Positions 18,554 to 32,800 are shown, counted from the first letter of the stretch. The stretch: DNA of 64,000 nucleotides from Promethearchaeota archaeon (GCA_019057865.1 JAHLWP010000014.1:1-64000), one strand, 5' to 3'. The notes: generated by a model from the sequence alone, not told the origin. Made by a program: numbers and translations.

Positions 18554-19612
18554 ATTAGATATATCGAATATCAAATTGTTATTGGAGATGCTCCTCCAGG
18601 TTTAATTTCTAAAGATCTTAAAAAATTAGGTTATTCAATTAATTATCAAATCCCTTCTCAAAAAATAGAAAAAGAATCATTATTCCCAGAGGGAGTAATA
18701 CATCATCTCGCCAAAGAGAGTTATGTTTGGAATTTTTCATTAATTTATAGAGAGAGAAATTTCGATATAATTAAATGGAGAACTTCATTTGCTTGGAAAG
18801 AAGAAGATGCGCAAGATTTAATGATGGAAAAAGGGTTATTTATAGGTGTGAGTGGGGGTGTATTTTTCATTAAAATTGATGAGGATATAGGTGATAATTT
18901 TATACAACTTGCTGATATTATGGATACTTTCATTGAAAAAACACACATGGAGCATGAAGCTCCTTTTATAGTTTATGGAGTTATTGAAGATCAGAAAAAA
19001 ATAGCTGAATTAAAAACAAACGAAGAAATGTTAAAAAATCTGGCAGATGTGAAAAAGTGGGTTGCTCAACATAGAGGAGAATTTAAACTTGAGAATTTAA
19101 AAGAAATTAAAATGAACTTAACCTATCTTGTTAGAGATTTTACTCACTTTATACTTACTAAACTTAAATCAAAAACTAATTATTCAGATCTCCAATTAAG
19201 AGAAGTCCATTTTCTAGATTATCAAGATATTAGTGCATTAAAGGAAATCGAGGCTGCTTTAACAGAACAAGCTAAAGCAGGAGAAACTGTTGATCAATTA
19301 TTATCTGAGCTTTTCTTCAAATATTTAAAATTACCAGAATTTCAAGAAGAAGCTATTACTAAACCTATTGAGATTCCAGAAGTATCCAAACCGGCTCCAT
19401 CAAAAATTAAAATTATACTAGAGGAAATTAGAAAGGGATTAAGAAGGCAATGCCCAAAATGTTTTAATAACGATCGAAACAAAATACGTGAAGTAATAGA
19501 TCGGGAAAATATTATTATGGAAAATCCCAATATTTATGGTTTCAAGTATATTTGCGGCATGTGTGGTCATGAGTGGAGAACCAAAAGGGATTGGAAGATT
19601 GAAGATAGTTAA
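18554..19612 (+). CDS. Hypothetical protein with C-terminal zinc ribbon; probable ATT start
   Basis: Frame open from 18548; GGTGA precedes ATT 18554; CPKC...CGMCG. Confidence 0.65.
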   Translation: MRYIEYQIVIGDAPPGLISKDLKKLGYSINYQIPSQKIEKESLFPEGVIHHLAKESYVWNFSLIYRERNFDIIKWRTSFAWKEEDAQDLMMEKGLFIGVSGGVFFIKIDEDIGDNFIQLADIMDTFIEKTHMEHEAPFIVYGVIEDQKKIAELKTNEEMLKNLADVKKWVAQHRGEFKLENLKEIKMNLTYLVRDFTHFILTKLKSKTNYSDLQLREVHFLDYQDISALKEIEAALTEQAKAGETVDQLLSELFFKYLKLPEFQEEAITKPIEIPEVSKPAPSKIKIILEEIRKGLRRQCPKCFNNDRNKIREVIDRENIIMENPNIYGFKYICGMCGHEWRTKRDWKIEDS

Positions 19613-20879: not shown

Positions 20880-20919
20880 CAAAAATAAGTAAAGTAATTT
20901 TAAAAAAAAAAAAAAATTT

Positions 20920-21105
20920 TTATTTAGAAGATTTTTGATACTTGTTCCAAAGATAAGCTAGTTTTTTCTCATCTTCAGATTCTATTTTCCCAGGATTATC
21001 ATCCGAGTTATCTAGTATCATCATGACTGGAGTTTTATCAGAATCCCAATCTTTATAGTAATCAAGTATCATATAGGGATCTTTTTTGCTTAACTTATTT
21101 CCCAA
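20920..21105 (-). CDS. 61-aa microprotein A
   Basis: GGAGGTGA upstream of TTG; similar to 42076-42249. Confidence 0.75.
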   Translation of the reverse strand: MGNKLSKKDPYMILDYYKDWDSDKTPVMMILDNSDDNPGKIESEDEKKLAYLWNKYQKSSK

Positions 21106-21132
21106 CTATTTTTCACCTCCTTTTTTTGATTT

Positions 21133-21341
21133 AGCTTTCACTAGGAGAATGAAATCAGGATCTGACCTTTTTCGAATAAATTTTACATAGTTATTATATG
21201 TTAAGAGAATAAACCAATAAAAAATATAAGAAACAGGTCAAGAGATTTGATTTATTCTCTCTTAATAATACTACGGATGAATACAGCTATTACACCTAAA
21301 TGTAATCTACACCAATATGTCGTAGTATTATTTGAAAAGCT
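21133..21341 (-). ncRNA. Predicted multibranch structured 5' leader
   Basis: Stems 21133-21140/21333-21341, 21145-21173/21230-21259, and perfect 12-bp 21264-21275/21321-21332. Confidence 0.65.
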
Positions 21342-21364
21342 CATTATTAGAAAAGTAAAAAAAA

Positions 21365-21385
21365 TCCTTTATAAACTTTACCCAT
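21365..21385 (-). promoter_or_regulatory. Putative BRE/TATA promoter
   Basis: Minus strand gggtaaag-tttataaa, about 25 nt before the closing stem. Confidence 0.5.
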
Positions 21386-21673
21386 TTATTTCCCATTTTT
21401 CTCAAATATCGTGAATTATACAAAAAAGTAGTAATGATTTCAAAATTTGTCATTACTTTTCAATGATTTATGTTATCTTAATTATTAATTCTAAAAAAAT
21501 GGCAGCAGAAAACATCTTTAATGAGATGAATGTATTACAAAAGAAATATCTCCCGAAATTTATATAAAATTCATCTTTTCATAATATTTTTTTTAATGAA
21601 GAAAATTTTATGATACATTTTTTAATTAATATTTCCTATATACTCAAGATAATATTTTAAATTATCTTGAGAT

Positions 21674-24600
21674 ATGAAATCTGTAAAACCAGAAAATTCT
21701 GAAGAAAAGATTAAAAAAATAACAGAATTCCTTACAAAATTATTTAGATTTTGCTTTTTCCTAATAATTGCACCTTTCGCTATTTCTTTAGCTGGATTTG
21801 GGATCTTGGTACAATTTCCTTGGGCTTCATATATAGCGTTTACTATTTCTGTAATAATTTTTACGTTTGCTTTCCTCTTTTTTTATAAAAGTTTTGACAA
21901 ATATCGAAATAACCCTTTCTTTTATAATAAATCCAATAACCCAATTGCCAGAGTACATGTCATATTTTTAATATCTATATTATCTTATGTTGTAACCCCA
22001 ATTTTCGATCTCATTACGCCCAAACATTGGTCGTTTATATATCTTCCGTTGATTTCTTTTTCTCTTTTATATAATATTGTGTATTATTACTACTACTTTC
22101 AGCCTATCGATTTTTTCAATATAGGCGAAGGAGAGTTTAAGCATGCTATTAGTTTAAAATTGATGTTAAAACAACCCTATAATTTTGTTATTGTTATTAA
22201 TTATCTTATTCAAATATTATATCTATCTTTTATAACTTCTTCTGACTTTGCTTGGCTTTTTGGGCTTATTAATAATCTAATTTTTTATTTGATTACTTTT
22301 GCGTCTGTAAGTAAGCAACAGAATGAAATCAAAAAATCTATCGAAGATAACAAACCATTCTTAAAAAATCTAACAAAATTTAAGCGTAAATTTGTTACAT
22401 CTTTAGCTAGCTTTATGTTTGTTCTTTTGATTCAAATGCCTTTTATATCATTGGTATTTTTAATTCAGAGAGGTCAATTTTCAGTTAATATTCTTATAGA
22501 TGATGCGTTTCTAAGTTTTTTATTCCTCTTACTCTTTCTTAAAACTGTACTTTATATCTACTTACATTATGAATTTTTATTTGAGTTATACAAAAACCCC
22601 GAAACATCAAGGAATTCTGAAGAAGAAAATAAAGATACAAAAGTCAAATATCAAAAGTTAAGTTCGATATTAACAGGAATTTTAATATTATTAATAACAT
22701 TATACACTTTTCTTATAGAGTTACCTTATATTACGCTAATTATTCTTCCATTTTTTTTTATTTTTACTCATTATGAGCATAAATCAAATTATTCCTTTAG
22801 AAAATATGATAATTTTATAATTTTATTATACAGTCTTGCATTTTTAGCTTCTATCTCTTTTGGAATCTTACCTTCTATTTCAGATCTTATTAATTTCAAT
22901 ATTCAATTAATTGTTTTTTTCATTTCCTTTTATTTCATGTTAGAATTATTTAGAAGGGTTAATTATTTTAAAAAAGGAAATATCCTAATAACTCAAAATA
23001 TTCTTGCAATAATCGCATTTTTCTTGATCATTCTTAACTATGTTTATATTTCCACAGATCCTTATCTGACGCTTGTTTCTAACGTTTTTATAATTCTAAT
23101 TCTTTTCTTTGTTGTTTTATTACTTTCATTTTACAGATTATATGCAATTTTCTTCAAAGAAAAATACTCAAAAACATTCAAAATATGCGTACTAATGAAT
23201 TTATTTCTGATAGAATTAATTATCTTTATTCTCATCAATTTTAATACCTACTTTACAGTGAGTTTTAACCTTTTCATTAAGCTTTTAGTCATTTCTACTA
23301 TTTTATTTCCGTTAATATTCATGCTTTTTGTGTTATTGAATTATTTAATTGGCATGATTAACTTAAAGACGCTTTTAGCATCAATTTATTATTCTTTTTG
23401 GTCATTAATAGTAATTATTTTTCTATCTATACTCATTACATTCTTCCCAAACTATATTATGATGATTTTCAATTTCCTGCTTTTATTAATTCTTATTAAT
23501 TTCAGTTTGAAATTTGGGGTAAAAATAGCAAAAGTAAAAGAAGAAACCTATAAAAAGGCTATGAGTGTTTTATCTTATCCAATATTTTTGTTACTTTTAG
23601 CTTTAATTTTCTCTATATTTTATGCTTCCTTTCAATTTCTACTTTTAATCGACAACATAATTCTTTCATCATTTCTTACCTTAATTATTACATGTGTCTT
23701 AATAAATTGTTTTTCTAAAATAGAATTCTTATTTACAAGAGCTATATCCATCAATGTTAATTTGTTAACCCTATTACTCAGCTCAATCTATTTATTTTAC
23801 TATTTAAGGTTGTTATCTTTGATTTTAGGAACTTTTTATCTATTTACATTTCCCGTAATAATTACGTGCTCATTTTTTTATCTTCCAATAATGTATTCAT
23901 TAAAGAAAAATATAGCGCCAAAATTAACAAAAACAGCATTAGTATATAATGGCATATTTTTATCTGTATTTCTGGCCCTCATTCCAACATTCATTTATTT
24001 AGAATTAATTAATCTAGGATATAGAGTTAATATTATCACAGTATTTAATGTTATCAATTTTACTCTTTATATTCTCTTTGGAATTCTACTCATTTACCGC
24101 TTTAAAATAAGAGAAAATCTTAAGAGAATTATTTTAATATCTGCACTTTTAATTGCTTTTCTTTTAACTGGAACAACTGTATTTTTTTACTTTTTTATAA
24201 TATTTTATGAGACTTCATTTAGATTTTTATTACCATTAATGATAGCATCCTCTTACTTCTTCATCCCTACTACTTACTCTTATAGAAAAAGACTTATGAA
24301 GGAATCTATAGGGAAGAAAATCTTAACTTATAACATCTTACTATTATCTGGGTTGATATTATGTATTCCAACATTCATCTATCTAGAATTAATTAATCTA
24401 GGATTACCTGTTGATATTATCACAGTTATTACTGATATCAATTTTACTCTTTATACTCTCTTTGGAATTTTAATCATTATAAACTTTAAAGTAAGAGAAA
24501 ATCTTAAAATATTTATTTTAAAATTGGAAGTTTTAATTGCCACCCTTTTAACTGGAACAACAGTATTCTTTTACTTTTTTATAATTTTCTATGAGACTTC

Positions 24601-27600
24601 ATTTAGATTTTTGTTACCATTAATGCTAGCATCCTCTTACTTCTTCATACCTAGTACTTACTCTTATAGAAAAAGACTTTTGAAAGAGTCTATTGGGAAG
24701 AAAATCTTAACCTATAACACTTTGTTATTATCTGGATTGATATTATGTATTCCAACATTCATTTATTTAGAATTAATTAATCTAGGATTACCTGTGAACG
24801 TTATCACACTTATCACAGATGTCAATTTTACTCTTTATACTCTCTTTGGAATTTTAATTATTATAAACTTCAAAATAAGAGAAAATCTTAAAAGATTTAT
24901 TTTAAAATTGGAAGTTTTAGTTGCTACCCTTTTAACTGGGACGACTGTATTTTTTTACTTTTTTATAGTTTTCTATGACACCCTATTCAGATTTTTGTTA
25001 CCATTAATGCTAGCATCCATATACTTCTTCATACCTAGTACTTACTCTTATAGAAAAGGACTTCTAAAGGAATCTATAGGGAAAAAAAGCTTAATTTATA
25101 ATAGTGTATTTTTATCTGGAATAATTTTATGCGTTCCAACTCCAATGGGTTTACAAATAGAACGAATGGGTTTAAGCGTTGATTACATTCTCATCTTAAT
25201 TTTTACAATCTTCATTTTATTTGTCATTTTAAGGATTTTTGATTCAATGGCTGAAAATTTTAAATTAAAAGAGATCTACATCAAAGCTTTAAGATTTCTT
25301 CAGATCTTTGTTTGGTTAATCTTCTCCTTTTTTATATCACTTGAGATTATACTATTAGGTTTAACACAATCTCTTCTTACAATAAGACTTTTAATAATAA
25401 GCTGTTCTATTTTAACTTTCTTTATTATTAATACTTATACTTTAAAATTACTTCAACTCTATTCAAAAGAATTAACTTTCCTTAGATATCTAAAAGATAC
25501 TTTATACTATGGTCTAATTTTTTCTCCATCATTAGTGATTTTTTCTTTAATACAGTTAAGCGAAGTTTTAAAATATTTACCTACAGAAATGCAACCTTTC
25601 AATCTGTTTTGGTATCTCGGTTTCTTTTTCCTGATAGTATTTATATCATTTAAGTTTAGCAGTGCTTTAATAAAAGCCGAATTTCCTAAATTACAGAGGA
25701 ATATTGAATTTGTATCGTGGCTAATTGCTAAAGTTTGTATCTGCTTTTTTATATCCTTTATTCTTACCTACTTTTTATCATTAGTTCAGTTTTCAGTTTT
25801 TAATCTAACAATTACTTTCATTCTAATTGTTTCACTATTATCCCCTATTACTTTTTCCTATTTCGAGAAATTTGAGTTAGTTTCTGAAGAATATCGATTC
25901 TTTATCAAAAGATTCACTGTAATTCTATTTATTACTGACATTTTAAGTTTTATATCGTATTCATGGCTTTTTAATAATCCTATTTATGGTCAATTTAATT
26001 TGATTCTTACAGCTACATTAACATTAAGTCTTACTGGATTAGCCTATGTTTTATTATTTTATAAATCACGATTACCATTAAGAAGAATTTCTTTCTTTAT
26101 AGTTTTACCATGCATTGTTATCAGCTTTCCTATTTTCTTATATTTCTTTATTAGTGTGTCTCTTTCCATACCATTTGGAGATATGTTTCCATTAATCATA
26201 GCTATTGATGTTGGAATTTTTCTTTTCTATTTATCTATTGGAATATATCAGTGGAAATTTTCTTGGGCAATTTGGAGGACAGGATGGTATGCCTGGTTTA
26301 TTGTACCTTTTGTTAATTTTTATCTATTATATAGAAGTCTTAAAGGTGTCGATATAGCTACAAGTGCTATAGATTTTTTTGGATATGAAATAAATGGATC
26401 ATTTCTTCTCACTACTGTGATCTTTTTTCTATTTTTCTTACCTATTGCATATACAAAAATTAAGATATATTTCTATCAAATTTTACTCATTATTTGGGGC
26501 ATAAACCTAGCTTTACTTTATTGGATTAGTCAAAATCTATTTCTGACTAATTTCTTATTAAGATATTTGGTATTTGCTCTTTTTGCAGCCGTTTTATTAG
26601 CGCCCCTGTTCTATAAATTGAAATTTTGGAAAACAATCTCGTTCGTATGGCTAATCCTTATAGCAATTAATGCAAATTTTTTAATTTTCTTTCTATTATC
26701 ATTAAAAATCCCTTTAGACATTGCGATTTCAATTGATATTTTCGCCATTGCCATGTTGGTTTTAATTTTATCATTTTTTCCTGCTTTTAAATCAATAAAA
26801 AATCTCGTTATCATTAGTTCTTACATAACAGCGATAATTGGGATTTTTCTAACAATTTATTTTATATTGTTTCATATAATCTTAGATCCAATTTTTGCTT
26901 TAAATATAACTTTTATATTTGTTGGATTTAGTTTATTTTCTTCTAAATATATTAAACCAATTAAACGATTAACAGACATGATATCTTCTTGGATTCTAAT
27001 ATTTGGTATTTCATGGTTAACTTTTAATTCATTTAATTTGCTGCCTAATCTACTATTTTTTGCTATATTTCTAGCAATTGCTGTGTGGGGCGGTTCTTTT
27101 TATGTTTTTAATTACTATAAAATGAAAATTCATATCCACAAAATAATTCCCTTTTCAGCGGTATCATTTGGTATTTCTTCTGCTGTTTCTTCCTTTCTGG
27201 TCATATTTCTGCCAGAAAATCCATTTTTTATAGCTAGTATTTTTGTATTGATTTCTCTGTTATTCGTTTACTATCCGTTAGGCAATTATAGATTATATTT
27301 ATGGTATTTGTTTCCCTTACCGTTGACATTTATTTTTCAGGAATTATTCTTAATGATTGATTTTATTCAATCTTCCCTCTTTTTAGCAATTTTAATATTT
27401 TTGGTTGATTATTTGATAATGTACCAACTAATAATGAATATTTCAAATTCTCACTATGAAGAAGCTAAAATAAAAGGAGAGAATACTTTATCGTATTTTT
27501 TCAAAGATAAGAATCAAATTAAATTACAAAATCTAATCTGCTTTATAATAAATTCAATTTATTTTTCAATACTCATATCAGTTATTAGTGCAAATATATT

Positions 27601-30600
27601 TAAACAAGTATTATTCAGAGATTTAATATTAGTTTATCAGATTCTTAATATTCTGATCATTCTACCCTTTCTTCTATTATTTTGCATAAAATATATTATA
27701 AAATCAGAACTTGAATTAAAAGTTAAAAATATATTAATTTATATTCACAAAATAAGTTATTTTATATATTTAATTGTCCCATTGGCAACAGCTTTTAATC
27801 TTTTCTTATTAATGCTTAAATTAGATGTTACTCTAACAAATTCTCTTTATTTATTCTTAATAATCTTAAGTGGAATGTTATTTACTGAATTATTTATTTT
27901 TGATAATCGATATTTTTATTACTTATTCGTTGCTGCTCGGAATAAGTTAATGTTTTGGTCATGGGTGATATTCGGTAATTTCTCTTGCATTTTCCTTTAT
28001 TTCTTCCATTTAGATGAATATATTTTAATATTATCATTCTCTCTGGTAAATTTAATTGATTCTTACTTCATTTCATATTTTAATATCAAAAACGAAAATT
28101 TAGCATCAATAATACACTTAATACTAATCTATAATTCATTTATATGGGTTTCATTTTACATTTCTTCTCTAATATCTAACGGAATAGTATTAATTCTTGA
28201 AGAAGTGCGTGGGATACCCTCACTTTTATTATTCATTCAAAATTCAATATTATTTCTATTTATATTTAGTTTTTTCATAAGAAAAGCTAAAGAAAAGATA
28301 AAAATTACTATAAAACTCCTATTAATAGCCGGTTTTCATATAATTTTTGCCATAAATTGGATTGTTATATTTTCAGTATTCAATATTTTAGATCTTTTCA
28401 CAATTTATTTTACCATTTTAATTGAAACATGCATATCATTTATTACAGTCAAATTAATGGATAGTTTAGTTAAAAAAGAAAAGTTTCCTAACTTTCTAAC
28501 GAAATCTAATTCTTTAATTGTATTTTTATTATATCTTGAAACAAGTTTAATGGTTTATGGACTTGCAATTGAATTTTTAGGATTTTTCGAAAGTATTTCT
28601 CTGTCTCAATTGACTTTATTTATTTTAACTTCATTTGATATATATTTTCTAAAAAAAATAAGAGAAACTTATGGAAGATTAATTCACACAATTAGTTATT
28701 TTATACTCTCCTTATCAACTCTTTTAATCCTAAACCAGTTTGTAAAATTTAATCCCCTTCTAATTAGTATAGAAGTCTTTATCTTTTTAATTATGCAATT
28801 TTATACAAATCATTCACTTTTTCTTTCTTTATCTCACTTTTATCCTGATAAAGCAGAAACCTTTAAACGCCATAAACTTAAAACACATCATTCTTTAGGG
28901 ATATTTTTATACGTTTCTGTACTATTAATTATAATTCAATCTCTTCTTATAATCGGAGTTGAAATTTCTTTACTCATTCTTATAACAAGTCTTTTTCTCC
29001 ACGGATTAATGATTCTTGATGCTTATCAATTAAAACTTTTAGGAAAGCTTTCAATATACCTTAAAGGAATTTCTTGGCTTTTATTTAAAATATTTTTTGC
29101 CATAAATTGGATTGTTATATTTTCAGTATTCAATATTTTAAATCTTTTCACAATTTATTTTCTCATTTTAATTGAAACATGTTTAACATTTATTACAATC
29201 AAATATTTGGATGGGTTATTTAAAGAAGGAAAATTTCCTAACTTTCTAACGAAATCTAATTCTTTAATTATCTTTTTATTATATCTTGAGACAAGTGTAA
29301 TGATTTATGGACTTGCAATTGAATTTTTAGGATTTTTCGAAAGTATTTTTATATCTCAATTAACTTTATTTATTTTAACTTCATTTGATATCTATTTTCT
29401 AAAAAAAATAAGAGAAAGTTATGGAAGACTAGTTCACACAATTAGTTATTTTATACTCTCCTTAACAACTCTTTTAATCTTAAACCAATTTGTAAAAATT
29501 AATCCCCTTCTAATGAGTATAGAAGTCTTTATCTTTTTAATTATGCAATTTTATACAAATCATTCACTTTTTCTTTCTTTATCTCACTTTTATCCTGATA
29601 AAGCAGAAACCTTTAAACGCCATAAACTTAAAACACATCATTCTTTAGGGATATTTTTATACGTTTCTGTACTATTAATTATAATTCAATCTCTTCTTAT
29701 AATCGGAGTTGAAATTTCTTTACTCATTCTTATAACAAGTCTTTTTCTCCACGGATTAATGATTCTTGATGCTTATCAATTAAAACTTTTAGGAAAGCTT
29801 TCCATATACCTTAAAGGAATTTCTTGGCTATTATTTATCTTCTTTTCAAATTTTTATTTATTATCGATTTATCTAACTTATTTATCTGACATTTTGATTT
29901 CTTCTATTCCGCCTTTAATTTTGCTCTTTATCATAGAACTTTTCTATTTAATTAAATTGGTTGAATTTTTGCCGAAACTGAGCTCAAATAAAGATAAAAT
30001 TAGAAAAAGTTTGCTTCTTATATTATGTTTTGATTTTATAATTTGGCCTTTATTTTTCTTAGGATTCAATTTAATTCTTAATATTACTCTATTCCTAATT
30101 TCATTTTATGTTCTAGTCATAATCTCTTATATTGATGAAAGAATATCTCATATTTTTGAAGAGAAATTCTTAAAAAAGCTTAGATTTACTACTTCCTTCA
30201 TAATTCTAATAATATTAATAGTTGATATTTTTCTTTGGTTACATCTCTCATTTAATCTTTCTCTCCCACTAAATACCTGTATTTCCCTTTTAATCTTTTC
30301 AATATTTAACATTGGATTACTTAAGCCATTTAAAAGAGCTCCTAATTTTTCCTTTGCTTATGGGGGGTTTATCTCTTTATTAATAAGTTTGATAATTTAT
30401 TTTGCAACCTCTCAAACGTTAACAAGTATTGTTCTCTTTCCTATAATGCTTACTTTTTATCTCTTTATATTTATGCTTGAAGTTTTAAAGACATTTTTTA
30501 ATAAACTTTTAGACCTTTTAATACATTTTTTCAGTCGATTAAAAAAATTTATAAAATATATTGGTATCAAGATTTTCAATTTTTTAAAATTACATTATAA

Positions 30601-31048
30601 AATTATCTGGGTCTCATTTAGTTTATTTCTTGCAGTTTCAATTGGCATTCTTTTATCTCCATTGCAACTAAATTATTTAAATTGGTATCATTCTGTTTTT
30701 GTTATGCTTGGACTTTTTGGTCTACTTTCTTTATTTTTACCTTCTAAAAAAACAGAAGATGTTGATTTGATGTTCAAACATAGAATGAGAAAACTAATTA
30801 CCTCATGGATAACAGTGATCGCAATATTATTCCTGTTTATTCCTGATCCTGTTTGGTACATAATTGCTTTTTGGATATCTATTTGGATTTTGGGAATAAT
30901 TCTATTACCTTATGTTATTTATAAAGAAAGAAAAGATAATATTTCAGTCAAGTGGAGATTTTATACACTAATTATTATCCTAACAGCTATTATTCTCGTA
31001 GGAATACCTGCTATATTTAGTATCTTAATAGAATTTAATGTAATTTGA
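21674..31048 (+). CDS. Giant 3124-aa polytopic membrane protein of unknown function
   Basis: Uninterrupted ORF of successive hydrophobic helices with short Lys-rich loops. Confidence 0.88.
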   Translation: MKSVKPENSEEKIKKITEFLTKLFRFCFFLIIAPFAISLAGFGILVQFPWASYIAFTISVIIFTFAFLFFYKSFDKYRNNPFFYNKSNNPIARVHVIFLISILSYVVTPIFDLITPKHWSFIYLPLISFSLLYNIVYYYYYFQPIDFFNIGEGEFKHAISLKLMLKQPYNFVIVINYLIQILYLSFITSSDFAWLFGLINNLIFYLITFASVSKQQNEIKKSIEDNKPFLKNLTKFKRKFVTSLASFMFVLLIQMPFISLVFLIQRGQFSVNILIDDAFLSFLFLLLFLKTVLYIYLHYEFLFELYKNPETSRNSEEENKDTKVKYQKLSSILTGILILLITLYTFLIELPYITLIILPFFFIFTHYEHKSNYSFRKYDNFIILLYSLAFLASISFGILPSISDLINFNIQLIVFFISFYFMLELFRRVNYFKKGNILITQNILAIIAFFLIILNYVYISTDPYLTLVSNVFIILILFFVVLLLSFYRLYAIFFKEKYSKTFKICVLMNLFLIELIIFILINFNTYFTVSFNLFIKLLVISTILFPLIFMLFVLLNYLIGMINLKTLLASIYYSFWSLIVIIFLSILITFFPNYIMMIFNFLLLLILINFSLKFGVKIAKVKEETYKKAMSVLSYPIFLLLLALIFSIFYASFQFLLLIDNIILSSFLTLIITCVLINCFSKIEFLFTRAISINVNLLTLLLSSIYLFYYLRLLSLILGTFYLFTFPVIITCSFFYLPIMYSLKKNIAPKLTKTALVYNGIFLSVFLALIPTFIYLELINLGYRVNIITVFNVINFTLYILFGILLIYRFKIRENLKRIILISALLIAFLLTGTTVFFYFFIIFYETSFRFLLPLMIASSYFFIPTTYSYRKRLMKESIGKKILTYNILLLSGLILCIPTFIYLELINLGLPVDIITVITDINFTLYTLFGILIIINFKVRENLKIFILKLEVLIATLLTGTTVFFYFFIIFYETSFRFLLPLMLASSYFFIPSTYSYRKRLLKESIGKKILTYNTLLLSGLILCIPTFIYLELINLGLPVNVITLITDVNFTLYTLFGILIIINFKIRENLKRFILKLEVLVATLLTGTTVFFYFFIVFYDTLFRFLLPLMLASIYFFIPSTYSYRKGLLKESIGKKSLIYNSVFLSGIILCVPTPMGLQIERMGLSVDYILILIFTIFILFVILRIFDSMAENFKLKEIYIKALRFLQIFVWLIFSFFISLEIILLGLTQSLLTIRLLIISCSILTFFIINTYTLKLLQLYSKELTFLRYLKDTLYYGLIFSPSLVIFSLIQLSEVLKYLPTEMQPFNLFWYLGFFFLIVFISFKFSSALIKAEFPKLQRNIEFVSWLIAKVCICFFISFILTYFLSLVQFSVFNLTITFILIVSLLSPITFSYFEKFELVSEEYRFFIKRFTVILFITDILSFISYSWLFNNPIYGQFNLILTATLTLSLTGLAYVLLFYKSRLPLRRISFFIVLPCIVISFPIFLYFFISVSLSIPFGDMFPLIIAIDVGIFLFYLSIGIYQWKFSWAIWRTGWYAWFIVPFVNFYLLYRSLKGVDIATSAIDFFGYEINGSFLLTTVIFFLFFLPIAYTKIKIYFYQILLIIWGINLALLYWISQNLFLTNFLLRYLVFALFAAVLLAPLFYKLKFWKTISFVWLILIAINANFLIFFLLSLKIPLDIAISIDIFAIAMLVLILSFFPAFKSIKNLVIISSYITAIIGIFLTIYFILFHIILDPIFALNITFIFVGFSLFSSKYIKPIKRLTDMISSWILIFGISWLTFNSFNLLPNLLFFAIFLAIAVWGGSFYVFNYYKMKIHIHKIIPFSAVSFGISSAVSSFLVIFLPENPFFIASIFVLISLLFVYYPLGNYRLYLWYLFPLPLTFIFQELFLMIDFIQSSLFLAILIFLVDYLIMYQLIMNISNSHYEEAKIKGENTLSYFFKDKNQIKLQNLICFIINSIYFSILISVISANIFKQVLFRDLILVYQILNILIILPFLLLFCIKYIIKSELELKVKNILIYIHKISYFIYLIVPLATAFNLFLLMLKLDVTLTNSLYLFLIILSGMLFTELFIFDNRYFYYLFVAARNKLMFWSWVIFGNFSCIFLYFFHLDEYILILSFSLVNLIDSYFISYFNIKNENLASIIHLILIYNSFIWVSFYISSLISNGIVLILEEVRGIPSLLLFIQNSILFLFIFSFFIRKAKEKIKITIKLLLIAGFHIIFAINWIVIFSVFNILDLFTIYFTILIETCISFITVKLMDSLVKKEKFPNFLTKSNSLIVFLLYLETSLMVYGLAIEFLGFFESISLSQLTLFILTSFDIYFLKKIRETYGRLIHTISYFILSLSTLLILNQFVKFNPLLISIEVFIFLIMQFYTNHSLFLSLSHFYPDKAETFKRHKLKTHHSLGIFLYVSVLLIIIQSLLIIGVEISLLILITSLFLHGLMILDAYQLKLLGKLSIYLKGISWLLFKIFFAINWIVIFSVFNILNLFTIYFLILIETCLTFITIKYLDGLFKEGKFPNFLTKSNSLIIFLLYLETSVMIYGLAIEFLGFFESIFISQLTLFILTSFDIYFLKKIRESYGRLVHTISYFILSLTTLLILNQFVKINPLLMSIEVFIFLIMQFYTNHSLFLSLSHFYPDKAETFKRHKLKTHHSLGIFLYVSVLLIIIQSLLIIGVEISLLILITSLFLHGLMILDAYQLKLLGKLSIYLKGISWLLFIFFSNFYLLSIYLTYLSDILISSIPPLILLFIIELFYLIKLVEFLPKLSSNKDKIRKSLLLILCFDFIIWPLFFLGFNLILNITLFLISFYVLVIISYIDERISHIFEEKFLKKLRFTTSFIILIILIVDIFLWLHLSFNLSLPLNTCISLLIFSIFNIGLLKPFKRAPNFSFAYGGFISLLISLIIYFATSQTLTSIVLFPIMLTFYLFIFMLEVLKTFFNKLLDLLIHFFSRLKKFIKYIGIKIFNFLKLHYKIIWVSFSLFLAVSIGILLSPLQLNYLNWYHSVFVMLGLFGLLSLFLPSKKTEDVDLMFKHRMRKLITSWITVIAILFLFIPDPVWYIIAFWISIWILGIILLPYVIYKERKDNISVKWRFYTLIIILTAIILVGIPAIFSILIEFNVI
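23981..25140 (+). repeat. Intragenic 384-bp tandem repeat x3
   Basis: attccaacattcat at 23981, 24365, 24749; gttccaac at 25133. Confidence 0.92.
28344..29833 (+). repeat. Intragenic 750-bp tandem duplication
   Basis: cataaattggattg at 28351 and 29101; distal parts nearly identical. Confidence 0.92.
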
Positions 31049-31195
31049 ATTAAAGGGTTTTGATTTTCCTTAAATTCCTTCTTTCTTCAAATAGAAAAGT
31101 GACTAATAATTTTTGCTAGATATAAACACTAATTAAAAAAGAATTAAAAAAAAAAGTAAATTTTAGATAAGTATTTTCTACTTTTGTTGCCTTTA

Positions 31196-32800
31196 TTACG
31201 ATTTCCTTTTAATTATCGATATAACTAATGCTACTGCACCAAGAGCAAGAAGAGCAATTCCAGGGATCATTAATCCATATAATAGTCCATCTGCTAATGT
31301 ATAGGCGTCAGTTGGCAAATCATATTTCTCTTGTGCGAGATATGGTGTAACATCATCTCTGAATTTAGGTAGCCAGTCCATGATCATTAACATTTCAGCA
31401 TCTGTTAGCATAATACCTGCCTTTATAGCAACATAGTTGGAATCATTAACTTTTGTCTTATACCATTTTGCAAGACCATCGTCATTGACTAGAGATAGTG
31501 TATTAGTTTCAGTAAAAAGAAGTACTGCTGATGTAACTGACATACCGGTAGGAGTAGGTACACCTACCTCCCAACCCTTACCTTTATTGGGTATAGTAAG
31601 ATCAAGACCAGTTGGATACCAAGATCCATTAGCCCATTGTGGCAAGAAAAATTTGACATTTGTCAATTCCCACATTGTTAATCCTTCAAAGGCTAGAACC
31701 ACAACTGGAACCACATTAGGCTTGAAAACGGTAAATAGCCAGGTAGCAACTAATCCTAACTGAGTAGGAGTAAGGCCAGTAAAAGCACTTACTATTGCTA
31801 TAGCTTCAGGACCACCAGGATTCTGAGCAGCTGCTGCCCATGCCAAAATTCCACCTGCTAAGTCATCATTTGTGAACGCCAAAAGGTTTGTATCATTAAA
31901 AAGTTCTTTAGCTATACCTAACGGAATACCTGTTGGAGTTGGTATGCCTGCTTCTAACCCAAAAACAGGTTCTGTTATTATGTCACTTAATTGACTAAGG
32001 TCAAGTCCAGTTGGTGCCAACTGTAAAGTATCGTTAGCCCATTGCCCATAAAACAATTTTTCAGCAACTTCTTCTACAGAAGTACCTAGGGAAAGATAGT
32101 AACCATAGACTACAACTCCAATCATATAGGTTGATAAATAATCTGCCATCGCAGAAAGTTGTAACCAATTTGCTCCATAACCAGCTATCATTGAAGCATT
32201 TACCCCTGGAACTGAAGTAGCTGCAGCTTGATACGCTTCAAGAAAGTATAAAACTCCAAATCCAAAGTCAGTATCCATCATAATGCCTGGAATAGTCTTG
32301 TTATATAGTGGGGACGTTATAGTAGCACCAGTTATCATTAACGCTTGTTGAGCTGTTGGTGTAAAGCTAAGGTTGCCCAACATCCCACCCATAAAGTACT
32401 CTGATACACCCTTAAGGTTTAAAAATCCCATGGTAGTAGTGTTGTATGTAGGATCATTAAAGAAATATTCAAGAGCAGTAACTAAATCAGGGAAAAATCC
32501 AAACCCAACAGACGCATAAACAGTTCCATTTATTATATTGGCAGCTGTGCTTCCATTAACTATAGCAGGTAATGCAGCATCCGCTTCTTCTTTAATCCCA
32601 AGAATAACTTCAGGAATCGCCAGAGTCGCTACTGTGTCTTCTGCATCCTCAATAACACCCTCTTGAATTTCTAATAACCCCTCACCAACTCCCTCGCGAA
32701 CCTCGGTGCGAAGATAGTCACTTGCAAATATTCCAGTTGGTACCGCTATTGCGCCAAGAACTAGAAGTACAATCCCAATAATACTAGTTTTCTTCGACAT
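31196..32800 (-). CDS. Protein with terminal TM helices and a large ectodomain carrying an internal repeat
   Basis: Two copies of QWAN..PTGLDL..G.E.G.PTPTG..LF..TN....NDD; many NxS/T sequons. Confidence 0.85.
   Translation of the reverse strand: MSKKTSIIGIVLLVLGAIAVPTGIFASDYLRTEVREGVGEGLLEIQEGVIEDAEDTVATLAIPEVILGIKEEADAALPAIVNGSTAANIINGTVYASVGFGFFPDLVTALEYFFNDPTYNTTTMGFLNLKGVSEYFMGGMLGNLSFTPTAQQALMITGATITSPLYNKTIPGIMMDTDFGFGVLYFLEAYQAAATSVPGVNASMIAGYGANWLQLSAMADYLSTYMIGVVVYGYYLSLGTSVEEVAEKLFYGQWANDTLQLAPTGLDLSQLSDIITEPVFGLEAGIPTPTGIPLGIAKELFNDTNLLAFTNDDLAGGILAWAAAAQNPGGPEAIAIVSAFTGLTPTQLGLVATWLFTVFKPNVVPVVVLAFEGLTMWELTNVKFFLPQWANGSWYPTGLDLTIPNKGKGWEVGVPTPTGMSVTSAVLLFTETNTLSLVNDDGLAKWYKTKVNDSNYVAIKAGIMLTDAEMLMIMDWLPKFRDDVTPYLAQEKYDLPTDAYTLADGLLYGLMIPGIALLALGAVALVISIIKRKS

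Follow-up and report, generated by a model that had tools for sequence, protein, structure and literature searches.

Textbooks describe leader-peptide attenuation as a bacterial mechanism, one that depends on the coupling of transcription to translation. In the enterobacterial attenuators (ilvL, ivbL, leuL and pheM-pheST), a leader ORF led by its own Shine-Dalgarno (SD) sequence is followed by a GC-rich terminator hairpin and a U-tract, which are read by the bacterial RNA polymerase. The T-box riboswitches of Gram-positive aminoacyl-tRNA synthetase (aaRS) and amino-acid genes make direct contact with uncharged tRNA by means of a specifier codon and the T-box sequence, and no translation is involved. 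In mycobacteria, ribosomes stalled on leaderless poly-Cys short ORFs block the structure that conceals the following gene's ribosome-binding site (Canestrari et al., bioRxiv 10.1101/834739), and both the leuS attenuators of Streptomyces and the actinobacterial LEU element have been put forward as predictions (Seliverstov et al. 2005, PMC1262725). As reported in the latter paper, mutating the run codons of the similar-looking ilvB and leuA leader peptides of Streptomyces coelicolor gave results that did not behave as attenuation, and attenuation was likewise judged unlikely for the LEU element after codon mutations (PMC1262725). The S. coelicolor result is a warning against assuming attenuation logic, and the caveat applies to the Asgard leader described here as well. 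For archaea, a full-text literature search of incomplete coverage returned no published case of leader-peptide sensing, and no paper on this leader RNA was found in the literature searched.

The locus lies in a stretch of 64,000 nt from a Promethearchaeota archaeon (GCA_019057865.1, JAHLWP010000014.1:1-64000; hereafter the window), and all of its features given below by position, counted from the first letter of the window, are on the minus strand. A sequence-only reading had described a TATA-like box, a structured region of about 210 nt and an ORF for a 61-aa microprotein, and had proposed an undescribed cis-regulatory RNA or a dual-function transcript. Checked letter by letter, every feature that it described is present on the minus strand where it had been placed. 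The idea of a cis-regulatory RNA holds in that the element is conserved, structured, cis-acting and situated before a real microprotein gene, but the element is probably not an untranslated 5' leader, as it opens with a conserved ORF of 25-32 codons (ORF1). This ORF, 30 codons long in the window, had gone unnoticed, and the notion of a dual-function transcript comes closer to the evidence than that of an untranslated 5' leader. We consider the locus to be, with fair probability, a ribosome-read leader-peptide switch, namely the Val/Ile-type member of a family of such switches in one Promethearchaeia (Asgard archaea) family; we are more confident of this for the entire family, and less so of how the mechanism works in detail and of its sign. 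The locus would form one transcription unit, consisting of a promoter, the leaderless 30-codon ORF1, an RNA switch of ~130 nt and the SD-led microprotein gene (ORF2), where the transcription start site (TSS), the translation of ORF1 and the single transcript are what we infer from the sequence. Three RNA runs from marine sediment, compared at 85% similarity, yielded no contig, a result that carries no weight as to expression.

The TATA-like box reported by the earlier reading is confirmed at 21375-21368 (TTTATAAA). Directly 5' of it, a 7-nt motif occurs twice in direct orientation (21396-21390 and 21385-21379), at a distance of one helical turn; the pair (21379..21396) is almost invariant across 20 same-genus genomes, is missing from the copy of the leader that precedes leuS, and represents a candidate transcription-factor or BRE-proximal site. 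In 19 of 20 same-genus genomes placed in a multiple alignment, the ATG of ORF1 follows the end of the TATA box by exactly 24 nt, and across the wider family a TTTAWA hexamer starts 28-37 nt 5' of ORF1 in 103 of 135 members, with modes at 31 and 34 nt. The usual archaeal spacing between TATA box and TSS puts the TSS at the AUG or within ~3 nt upstream of it. Since ORF1 starts 24 nt after the TATA box, its mRNA is probably leaderless, and the transcript most likely begins at the ORF1 AUG or within 3 nt of it, that is, it would be leaderless or nearly so. A TSS close to the ORF had been named by the sequence-only reading as an outcome that would refute its proposal; this argument cuts the opposite way here, because the TSS predicted from the sequence is close to ORF1 and not to ORF2.

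ORF1 itself (21344-21252, stop codon at 21254-21252) occupies the first 93 nt of the leader. Its frame (25-32 codons) is open in 53 of 53 close homologues, and a stop mostly ends the remaining two frames there after 0-5 codons. The indels inside ORF1 are all multiples of 3, with five different lengths in the main group, which is not the case for indels in the spacer behind it. About 80 of the more distant leader copies were retrieved, and of those examined all but three have an ORF1 of 20-36 codons (for L134, L156 and L158, our script called no frame). In all 109 distinct leaders scored, the conserved RNA segment termed box A either contains the stop codon of ORF1 or is preceded by it at a distance of ~6 nt or less. 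The third codon positions of the first four and last four ORF1 codons are invariant, and one subgroup reads the same nucleotides in another frame, ending at an earlier stop. Reading both strands of an RNA hairpin, P1, in frame yields the peptide motifs N-T-T (near the start) and V-V-L (at the end); constraint on the RNA therefore explains part of the conservation of ORF1, and the conservation of the peptide is inseparable from that of the hairpin. The main group of genus g1, to which the window belongs, reads through the old stop in another frame and ends ORF1 12 nt further, inside box A. The last ten residues in the window, VFIRSIIKRE, include 3 Ile, 1 Val and no Leu, with no clean codon run, and ORF1 of the window is, by its sequence, a derived form (Ile/Val, without a clean run). 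Given such a tail, it may sense Ile/Val weakly, or its function may have shifted or drifted from sensing.

We compared the folding energy of the RNA with that of dinucleotide shuffles, a check that the sequence-only reading had proposed. A 240-nt stretch folds at -52.4 kcal/mol, compared to -38.1 ± 4.2 kcal/mol for 200 shuffles, none of which folds as well (z = -3.40). The plus strand folds almost equally well (z = -3.30), and folding energy alone is therefore insufficient to tell the strand. G-U pairs had been thought not to settle this question either; in fact they do, since many conserved G-U pairs would become A-C on the opposite strand (for example, U-G in 43 of 53 sequences at one P2 pair), and together with the two ORFs they assign the element to the minus strand. 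Consistently, a covariance model (R1), built from 11 sequences with the helices P0, P1 and P2, scores 89-260 bits on the strand of the ORFs and 25-40 bits on the opposite one.

Covariation across homologues, another proposed check, revealed compensatory changes in P1, P2, P3 and partly P0. In an alignment of 53 distinct homologues to R1, the stem that closes the ~210-nt region, P0 (21341-21333, in codons 1-4 of ORF1, with 21140-21133), has 85% of its cells paired and changes on both sides in 4 of 11 pairs, and its sequences in the leuS and FrhB copies differ with complementarity kept. This helix is weaker across the leaders (mean z = -1.55), and in the window it comprises 7-8 bp with z = -0.4. 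P1 (21264..21332) is situated within ORF1 and, as the earlier reading had it, is a perfect 12-bp stem (21332-21321 with 21275-21264) enclosing an inner hairpin, P1a (21306-21289), of 7 bp (21306-21300 with 21295-21289). It is paired in 92% of cells, with double changes in 7 of 14 pairs, and over 133 leaders the fold of the ORF1 interior is more stable than that of shuffles in 80% of cases (mean z = -3.4). The 3' strand of P1 coincides with the C-terminal (regulatory) codons of ORF1 and runs directly into box A (21249..21263), a purine-rich 15-mer that holds the ORF1 stop codon and is almost invariant in the genus.

Box A pairs with box A' (21201..21215) to form P2, of which 97% of cells are paired in the 53 homologues; the helix is mostly invariant, and one-sided changes in 13 inner pairs all keep the pairing. 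When 51 diverse family members were aligned with MAFFT, blind to structure, 9 of 15 P2 pairs showed double changes, a score reached by none of 500 shuffles. P3 is absent from the covariance model and joins box B with its extension (21241-21235 and 21233-21230), located in the loop of P2, to box B' (21173-21170 and 21168-21162). It is paired in 90.5% of cells of the 53 homologues, with double changes in 6 of 11 pairs, and on the structure-blind alignment of the 51 members in 7 of 11 pairs, again with 0 of 500 shuffles reaching the score. Of all column pairs, it is one in P3, 142-218, that covaries most strongly; beyond it, the all-against-all scan was too noisy, the sequences being related. In control runs for the helix pair counts, 0 of 500 shuffles reached the observed values and slid controls were only 41-50% paired, although these are counts over genomes of one family, whose kinship makes them overstate independence. 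Because box B sits in the loop of P2, P2 and P3 are either an H-type pseudoknot or alternatives to each other.

A third segment, box A'' (21156-21144), is pyrimidine-rich and complementary both to box A, as its second partner, and to the SD of ORF2. Over 135 leaders the A:A'' duplex beats shuffled windows (mean z = -3.2, with 76% below -2), and A'' changes in concert with A between subfamilies. The long interrupted stem noticed by the sequence-only reading corresponds to the nested A:A''+B:B' fold of the MFE. Between B and A' there is an unpaired U-rich tract (21216..21229) that is conserved family-wide; that it acts as an RNA polymerase pause site or an oligo-U terminator is conjecture, and a by-eye check of the aligned subfamilies did not consistently find a conserved terminator hairpin with a U-tract after P2. 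On a plain MAFFT alignment, RNAalifold recovered nothing but P2 and an alternative, P0alt, in which the 5' end pairs with letters immediately 3' of the SD. P0alt is 96% pairable without compensatory change, and its conservation is accounted for by the SD and the spacer; we keep it as an option that is possible at most. Searches with cmscan (the window at gathering thresholds, the region at E ≤ 10) matched none of the Rfam leader families (Leu_leader, Thr_leader, His_leader, Trp_leader and Phe_leader), the T-box or the known riboswitches; the only hits were three to snoRNAs/sRNAs, at E > 6, which are due to chance. There was likewise no match to tRNA or tmRNA (ARAGORN), SRP RNA or RNase P RNA; for tRNA, SRP RNA and RNase P RNA this agrees with the first reading, which had recognised no such motifs.

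The RNA from the ORF1 AUG to just beyond the start of ORF2 can adopt two competing states in a nested energy model, which includes neither pseudoknot nor kinetics. The minimum (P2 state, -54.3 kcal/mol) combines P1, P2 and a hairpin that pairs A'' with the entire SD (GGAGGUGA, 21120-21113; core invariant in 20 of 20 genomes). The forced A:A'' state (-52.4 kcal/mol) is a three-way junction of P0, P1 and A:A''+B:B', in which the SD is wholly unpaired. The two folds of the window thus differ by 1.9 kcal/mol, and the individual duplexes amount to -14.7 (A:A'), -8.6 (A:A''), -10.8 (B:B') and -12.0 (A'':SD) kcal/mol. Among 27 relatives, the difference between states is 1.7 ± 4.4 kcal/mol, and the SD is paired at 0.64 in the P2 state versus 0.31 in the A:A'' state. 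Masking of the SD by A'' would accordingly be, in these models, a tendency across the genus and not a rule; it is clean in the closest relatives of the window, and the leuS copies do not evidently show it. Over 53 sequences, the A'':SD helix is 96% pairable, based on the pyrimidine run and with little covariation.

When a ribosome-sized mask was placed on the last ORF1 codon and box A, the probability that the SD is unpaired fell from 0.35 to 0.02 in the window and from 0.37 to 0.19 on average, and a mask six codons upstream did not lower it. The model therefore suggests that ribosome occupancy of the end of ORF1 can toggle the SD, and does not imply which direction is used in the cell. What is expected of an attenuator, namely mutually exclusive helices with one strand in reach of ribosomes at the stop codon, was found in A:A' versus A:A'', both of which covary.

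Judging from its sequence conservation, ORF2 is a real gene. It encodes an acidic microprotein of 61 aa (21105-20920) with a TTG start, and its frame ends upstream at an in-frame stop, TGA, formed by the final three letters of the SD. A peptide-motif search with one genome per species found ORF2 in 52 species-level genomes, giving an alignment with 8 invariant residues and codon-position diversities of 0.29/0.22/0.39, and the upstream element is present at all 51 ORF2 loci with enough upstream sequence. The first start-type codon, 7 nt past the SD core, is CTG in 24 of 53 and TTG in 15 of 53, and an internal ATG seen in some species is not conserved. Neither ORF2 nor the related microproteins belong to a Pfam or NCBIfam family; an AlphaFold2 model of ORF2 has two helices, of which the C-terminal one is basic, at low confidence (pLDDT 64.5), and there is no evident link of ORF2 to branched-chain amino acids. 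In the sister genera, we also observed a second unannotated microprotein family, of 45 aa. Oligo-T tracts are archaeal transcription terminators, and a T15 tract 3' of ORF2 (20902..20916), read from the sequence, is likely such a terminator. On one flank, a class I/II aminotransferase that is closest to LL-diaminopimelate aminotransferase converges with ORF2; the other flank holds a membrane protein of 3124 aa. Same-genus relatives have a 440-aa GH4-type gene divergently upstream, which in the window's genome is deleted to its last ~22 codons.

The element recurs in related genomes. By blastn, the region from just 5' of the TATA box through ORF2 is found at 68-94% identity in ~20 of 24 same-genus genomes, and R1 matches 69 of the 101 genomes in family f1, to which the window belongs, and none of 19 from three sister families. 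A core covariance model of P2 and its loop (R2) extends the matches to 82 of 101 genomes and 10 of 13 genera of the same Promethearchaeia family, usually with 2-4 copies each, in tandem in some genomes. The 4.26-Mb genome of the window contains a single copy of the element by BLAST and exactly two by R2, namely that of the window (91.6 bits) and one before leuS (73.6 bits; contig G000:C1, with leuS at 28363-31245); the leader of this leuS has a Leu-rich ORF1 of 28 codons and a compensated box A/A'. Two further marginal R2 matches in the genome (on C77 and C79) were rejected, being within coding sequence. We also rejected a MITE or other dispersed repeat, which the sequence-only reading had named as a possible identity that would refute its proposal: there is one BLAST copy, both model copies stand before genes, and the loci are syntenic across genomes.

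Given that these copies precede different genes, we compared the amino acids in the last 10 positions of ORF1 with the gene downstream. Before a class I tRNA synthetase of ~965 aa with a LeuRS editing domain (23 leaders in 5 genera), ORF1 ends contain on average 6.4 Leu, 0.1 Ile and 1.1 Val, and all 23 have Leu runs. Before an FrhB-like/TrmB fusion (9 leaders in 3 genera), the average is 4.7 Ile, and all 9 are Ile-rich. Microproteins at loci syntenic with the window, sharing the convergent aminotransferase, follow 11 leaders with an average of ~4 Val and ~4 Leu. Single leaders precede a branched-chain-aminotransferase-like (BCAT-like) gene, where ORF1 is Val/Ile/Ala-rich, and an acyl-CoA-dehydrogenase-like gene, where it is Val-rich. 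The synteny suggests that the copy in the window belongs to the valine-type, microprotein-linked group. Ribosome-read leaders are characterized by a codon run that suits the gene and an RNA core common to the copies, a combination that is hard to reconcile with a metabolite aptamer or a trans-acting peptide.

Other explanations were nevertheless weighed. It is unlikely that the locus is a plain two-gene micro-operon, in which ORF1 encodes a functional small hydrophobic peptide (a membrane peptide, toxin or signal) and the RNA serves stability, processing or translational coupling. The usual archaeal operon does have a leaderless first gene and an SD-led second one, as here, and the hydrophobic C-terminal halves of ORF1 in most family members, as well as the conserved N- and C-terminal residues of the genus g1 peptide, would fit such a product. 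However, the interior of the peptide is not conserved, its composition follows the downstream gene (Leu with LeuRS in every one of the 23 cases), the same device stands ahead of unrelated genes, and two competing covarying helices need a switch function. The last of these features would suit a riboswitch, with the P2/P3 pseudoknot acting as a ligand-binding aptamer or a T-box-like sensor of tRNA and ORF1 being incidental, which we regard as distinctly unlikely. A pseudoknot with strongly conserved unpaired loop nucleotides and an SD gated by two alternative folds are what one would look for in such an RNA, and the codon runs could in principle pair with anticodons. Yet ORF1 is kept open with frame-preserving indels despite unalignable interiors, its start codon keeps a fixed distance to the TATA box, one conserved core precedes genes for different amino acids with only the composition of ORF1 varying with the gene, and Rfam contains no matching T-box or riboswitch.

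A protein might instead operate the leader, if ORF2 or another RNA-binding protein bound P2/P3 in an autoregulatory manner and the codon runs were a by-product of the hairpin. The basic C-terminal helix of ORF2 and the precedent of the actinobacterial LEU element, for which a protein site was argued once codon mutations had turned out to be without effect (PMC1262725), lend this some appeal, but the leuS, FrhB, BCAT-like and acyl-CoA-dehydrogenase-like copies keep the core without ORF2 downstream, and the amino-acid-specific runs would be left unexplained, making this very improbable in our view. We give hardly any credence to the view that the element is a separate small RNA acting in trans, or a mobile or repeat sequence, and lies upstream of ORF2 only by chance: as compact and stable as the fold is, and even with 2-4 copies per genome and tandem copies in some, the element is always co-oriented with and directly before an SD-led start, the loci are syntenic without terminal repeats, and the window's own genome has only 2 copies.

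According to the leader-peptide switch that we favor, a ribosome slowed on, or released from, the last codons of ORF1 would determine if box A is accessible at the time of transcription of A' and, subsequently, A'', and the availability of box A would in turn set the translation of ORF2. In the energy model, a ribosome parked on box A would leave A'' free to mask the SD (off), and a free box A could open the SD. A broader proposition, namely that a leaderless mini-ORF, its codon run tuned anew to Leu, Ile or Val for each gene, was joined to a single homologous bistable core, that this is the first described archaeal family of its kind, and that the copy in the window gates a non-AUG microprotein of branched-chain homeostasis, is one for which we see the case for and against as evenly balanced. 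If true, archaeal ribosomes would be used as amino-acid sensors. A leaderless sensing ORF, a pseudoknotted switch that can be reused and codon runs corresponding to leuS and other branched-chain genes would then come together in one small and testable system, in which the coupling of transcription to translation and the leaderless initiation of Asgard archaea could be studied. It would also flag ORF2 and the 45-aa protein family as likely players in amino-acid physiology, and, for annotation, ORF1 and the CTG/TTG-start ORF2 exemplify types of genes that gene callers miss.

Compared with described systems, the Asgard leaders have in common with the enterobacterial attenuators that their helices exclude each other, that biosynthesis or aaRS genes stand downstream and, in the paralogues of the window's copy, that a short ORF has many codons for the amino acid concerned. 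They differ in that the ORF is predicted to be leaderless, there is no conserved terminator hairpin, the read-out in the window is apparently translational, and no Rfam leader family matches. Like the T-box, they appear to be one reusable RNA scaffold that is fitted to different amino acids, stands before aaRS genes and would report tRNA charging, but in the Asgard leaders the variable part would be a translated ORF, and Rfam detects no T-box motif. The predicted leuS attenuators of Streptomyces resemble the Asgard leuS copies in having a leader ORF with a Leu run before leuS, and the actinobacterial LEU element combines a leader ORF, a pseudoknot and pairing of the SD, as the Asgard leader is predicted to do; both differ from the Asgard leader in sequence and in domain of life.

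By analogy, the closest working counterpart appears to be the mycobacterial leaderless poly-Cys short ORF. Common to both are a leaderless short ORF that comes first in the transcript (in the Asgard case by prediction), a run of codons for one amino acid near the end of that ORF (in the Asgard case in the paralogues of the window's copy), and several loci with a shared logic (a 'ribulon'). The mycobacterial attenuators are bacterial and sense Cys, whereas the Asgard leaders are archaeal and concern branched-chain amino acids, and the two have no homology in sequence or structure. Moreover, the mycobacterial mechanism has been demonstrated by experiment, whereas that of the Asgard leader is one that we infer. 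The sign may differ as well, in that a stall gives ON in mycobacteria, whereas in the nested model of the Asgard leader masking the end of ORF1 and box A makes the SD less accessible (from 0.35 to 0.02). Finally, unlike the mycobacterial attenuators, the Asgard leaders reuse one homologous RNA core, consisting of P2/P3 and the competing A'', before different genes.

The leuS gene of the window's own genome is preceded by a paralogue of the structured leader (G000:C1, about 28100-28365, corresponding to L121 1225-1500), which has a TATA box, a 28-codon ORF1 with 10 Leu, a compensated box A/A' pairing, a B/B' pairing and the closing stem P0, which pairs the ORF1 start. Ile-rich copies of the leader sit before a gene encoding a fusion of FrhB/FdhB-like Fe-S domains and a TrmB-type HTH domain, at loci from related genomes (L116 285-1709, L128, L132, L133, L136, L143, L152 and L160). 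This arrangement suggests that the fusion protein takes part in isoleucine metabolism or helps to regulate it.

In sister genera, two small genes lie behind a Val-rich leader: the first encodes a conserved microprotein of 45 aa with I-A-W at its end, the second an ORF2-like protein of 56-63 aa. This arrangement was seen at L107-L112 and L120 (genera g15, g16 and g22), and neither protein from these genera matched a Pfam family. Leader and microprotein cassettes are also duplicated in tandem, with a spacing of about 625 nt, in genus g14 and its relatives (L118, G083:C235; L119, G108:C73; L088, L101 and L083).

Directly upstream of the TATA box in the window, a 7-nt sequence occurs twice in direct orientation, the copies being spaced by one helical turn (21379-21396, minus strand); the repeats are kept across the genus and missing from the leuS copy of the leader. 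The pair is a candidate transcription-factor site, and initiation of transcription at this locus may thus also be controlled.

Farther upstream, about the last 22 codons of a GH4/alpha-galactosidase-like gene persist as a remnant (21463-21567, plus strand). Relatives carry this gene whole (440 aa), divergent from the leader (L003 86-1408); its loss in the window's genome is a deletion, as a result of which the upstream region of a 3124-aa gene now adjoins the leader promoter. The latter gene (21674-31048, plus strand) lies in a stretch of 24% G+C, and its product is extremely hydrophobic and contains long internal near-repeats. On the other side, beside the convergent aminotransferase gene, a 263-aa ORF (18821-19612, plus strand) with a zinc-ribbon-like CxxC...CxxC C-terminal end had no Pfam match; the ORF is conserved beside that gene in the closest relative.

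In the window (21103-21120, minus strand) and in homologues, the ORF2 start codon is placed 7 nt past a full 8-nt SD, the final three letters of which form an in-frame stop. The start is CTG in 24 of 53 cases and TTG in 15; CUG as a regular start codon is unusual for archaea.
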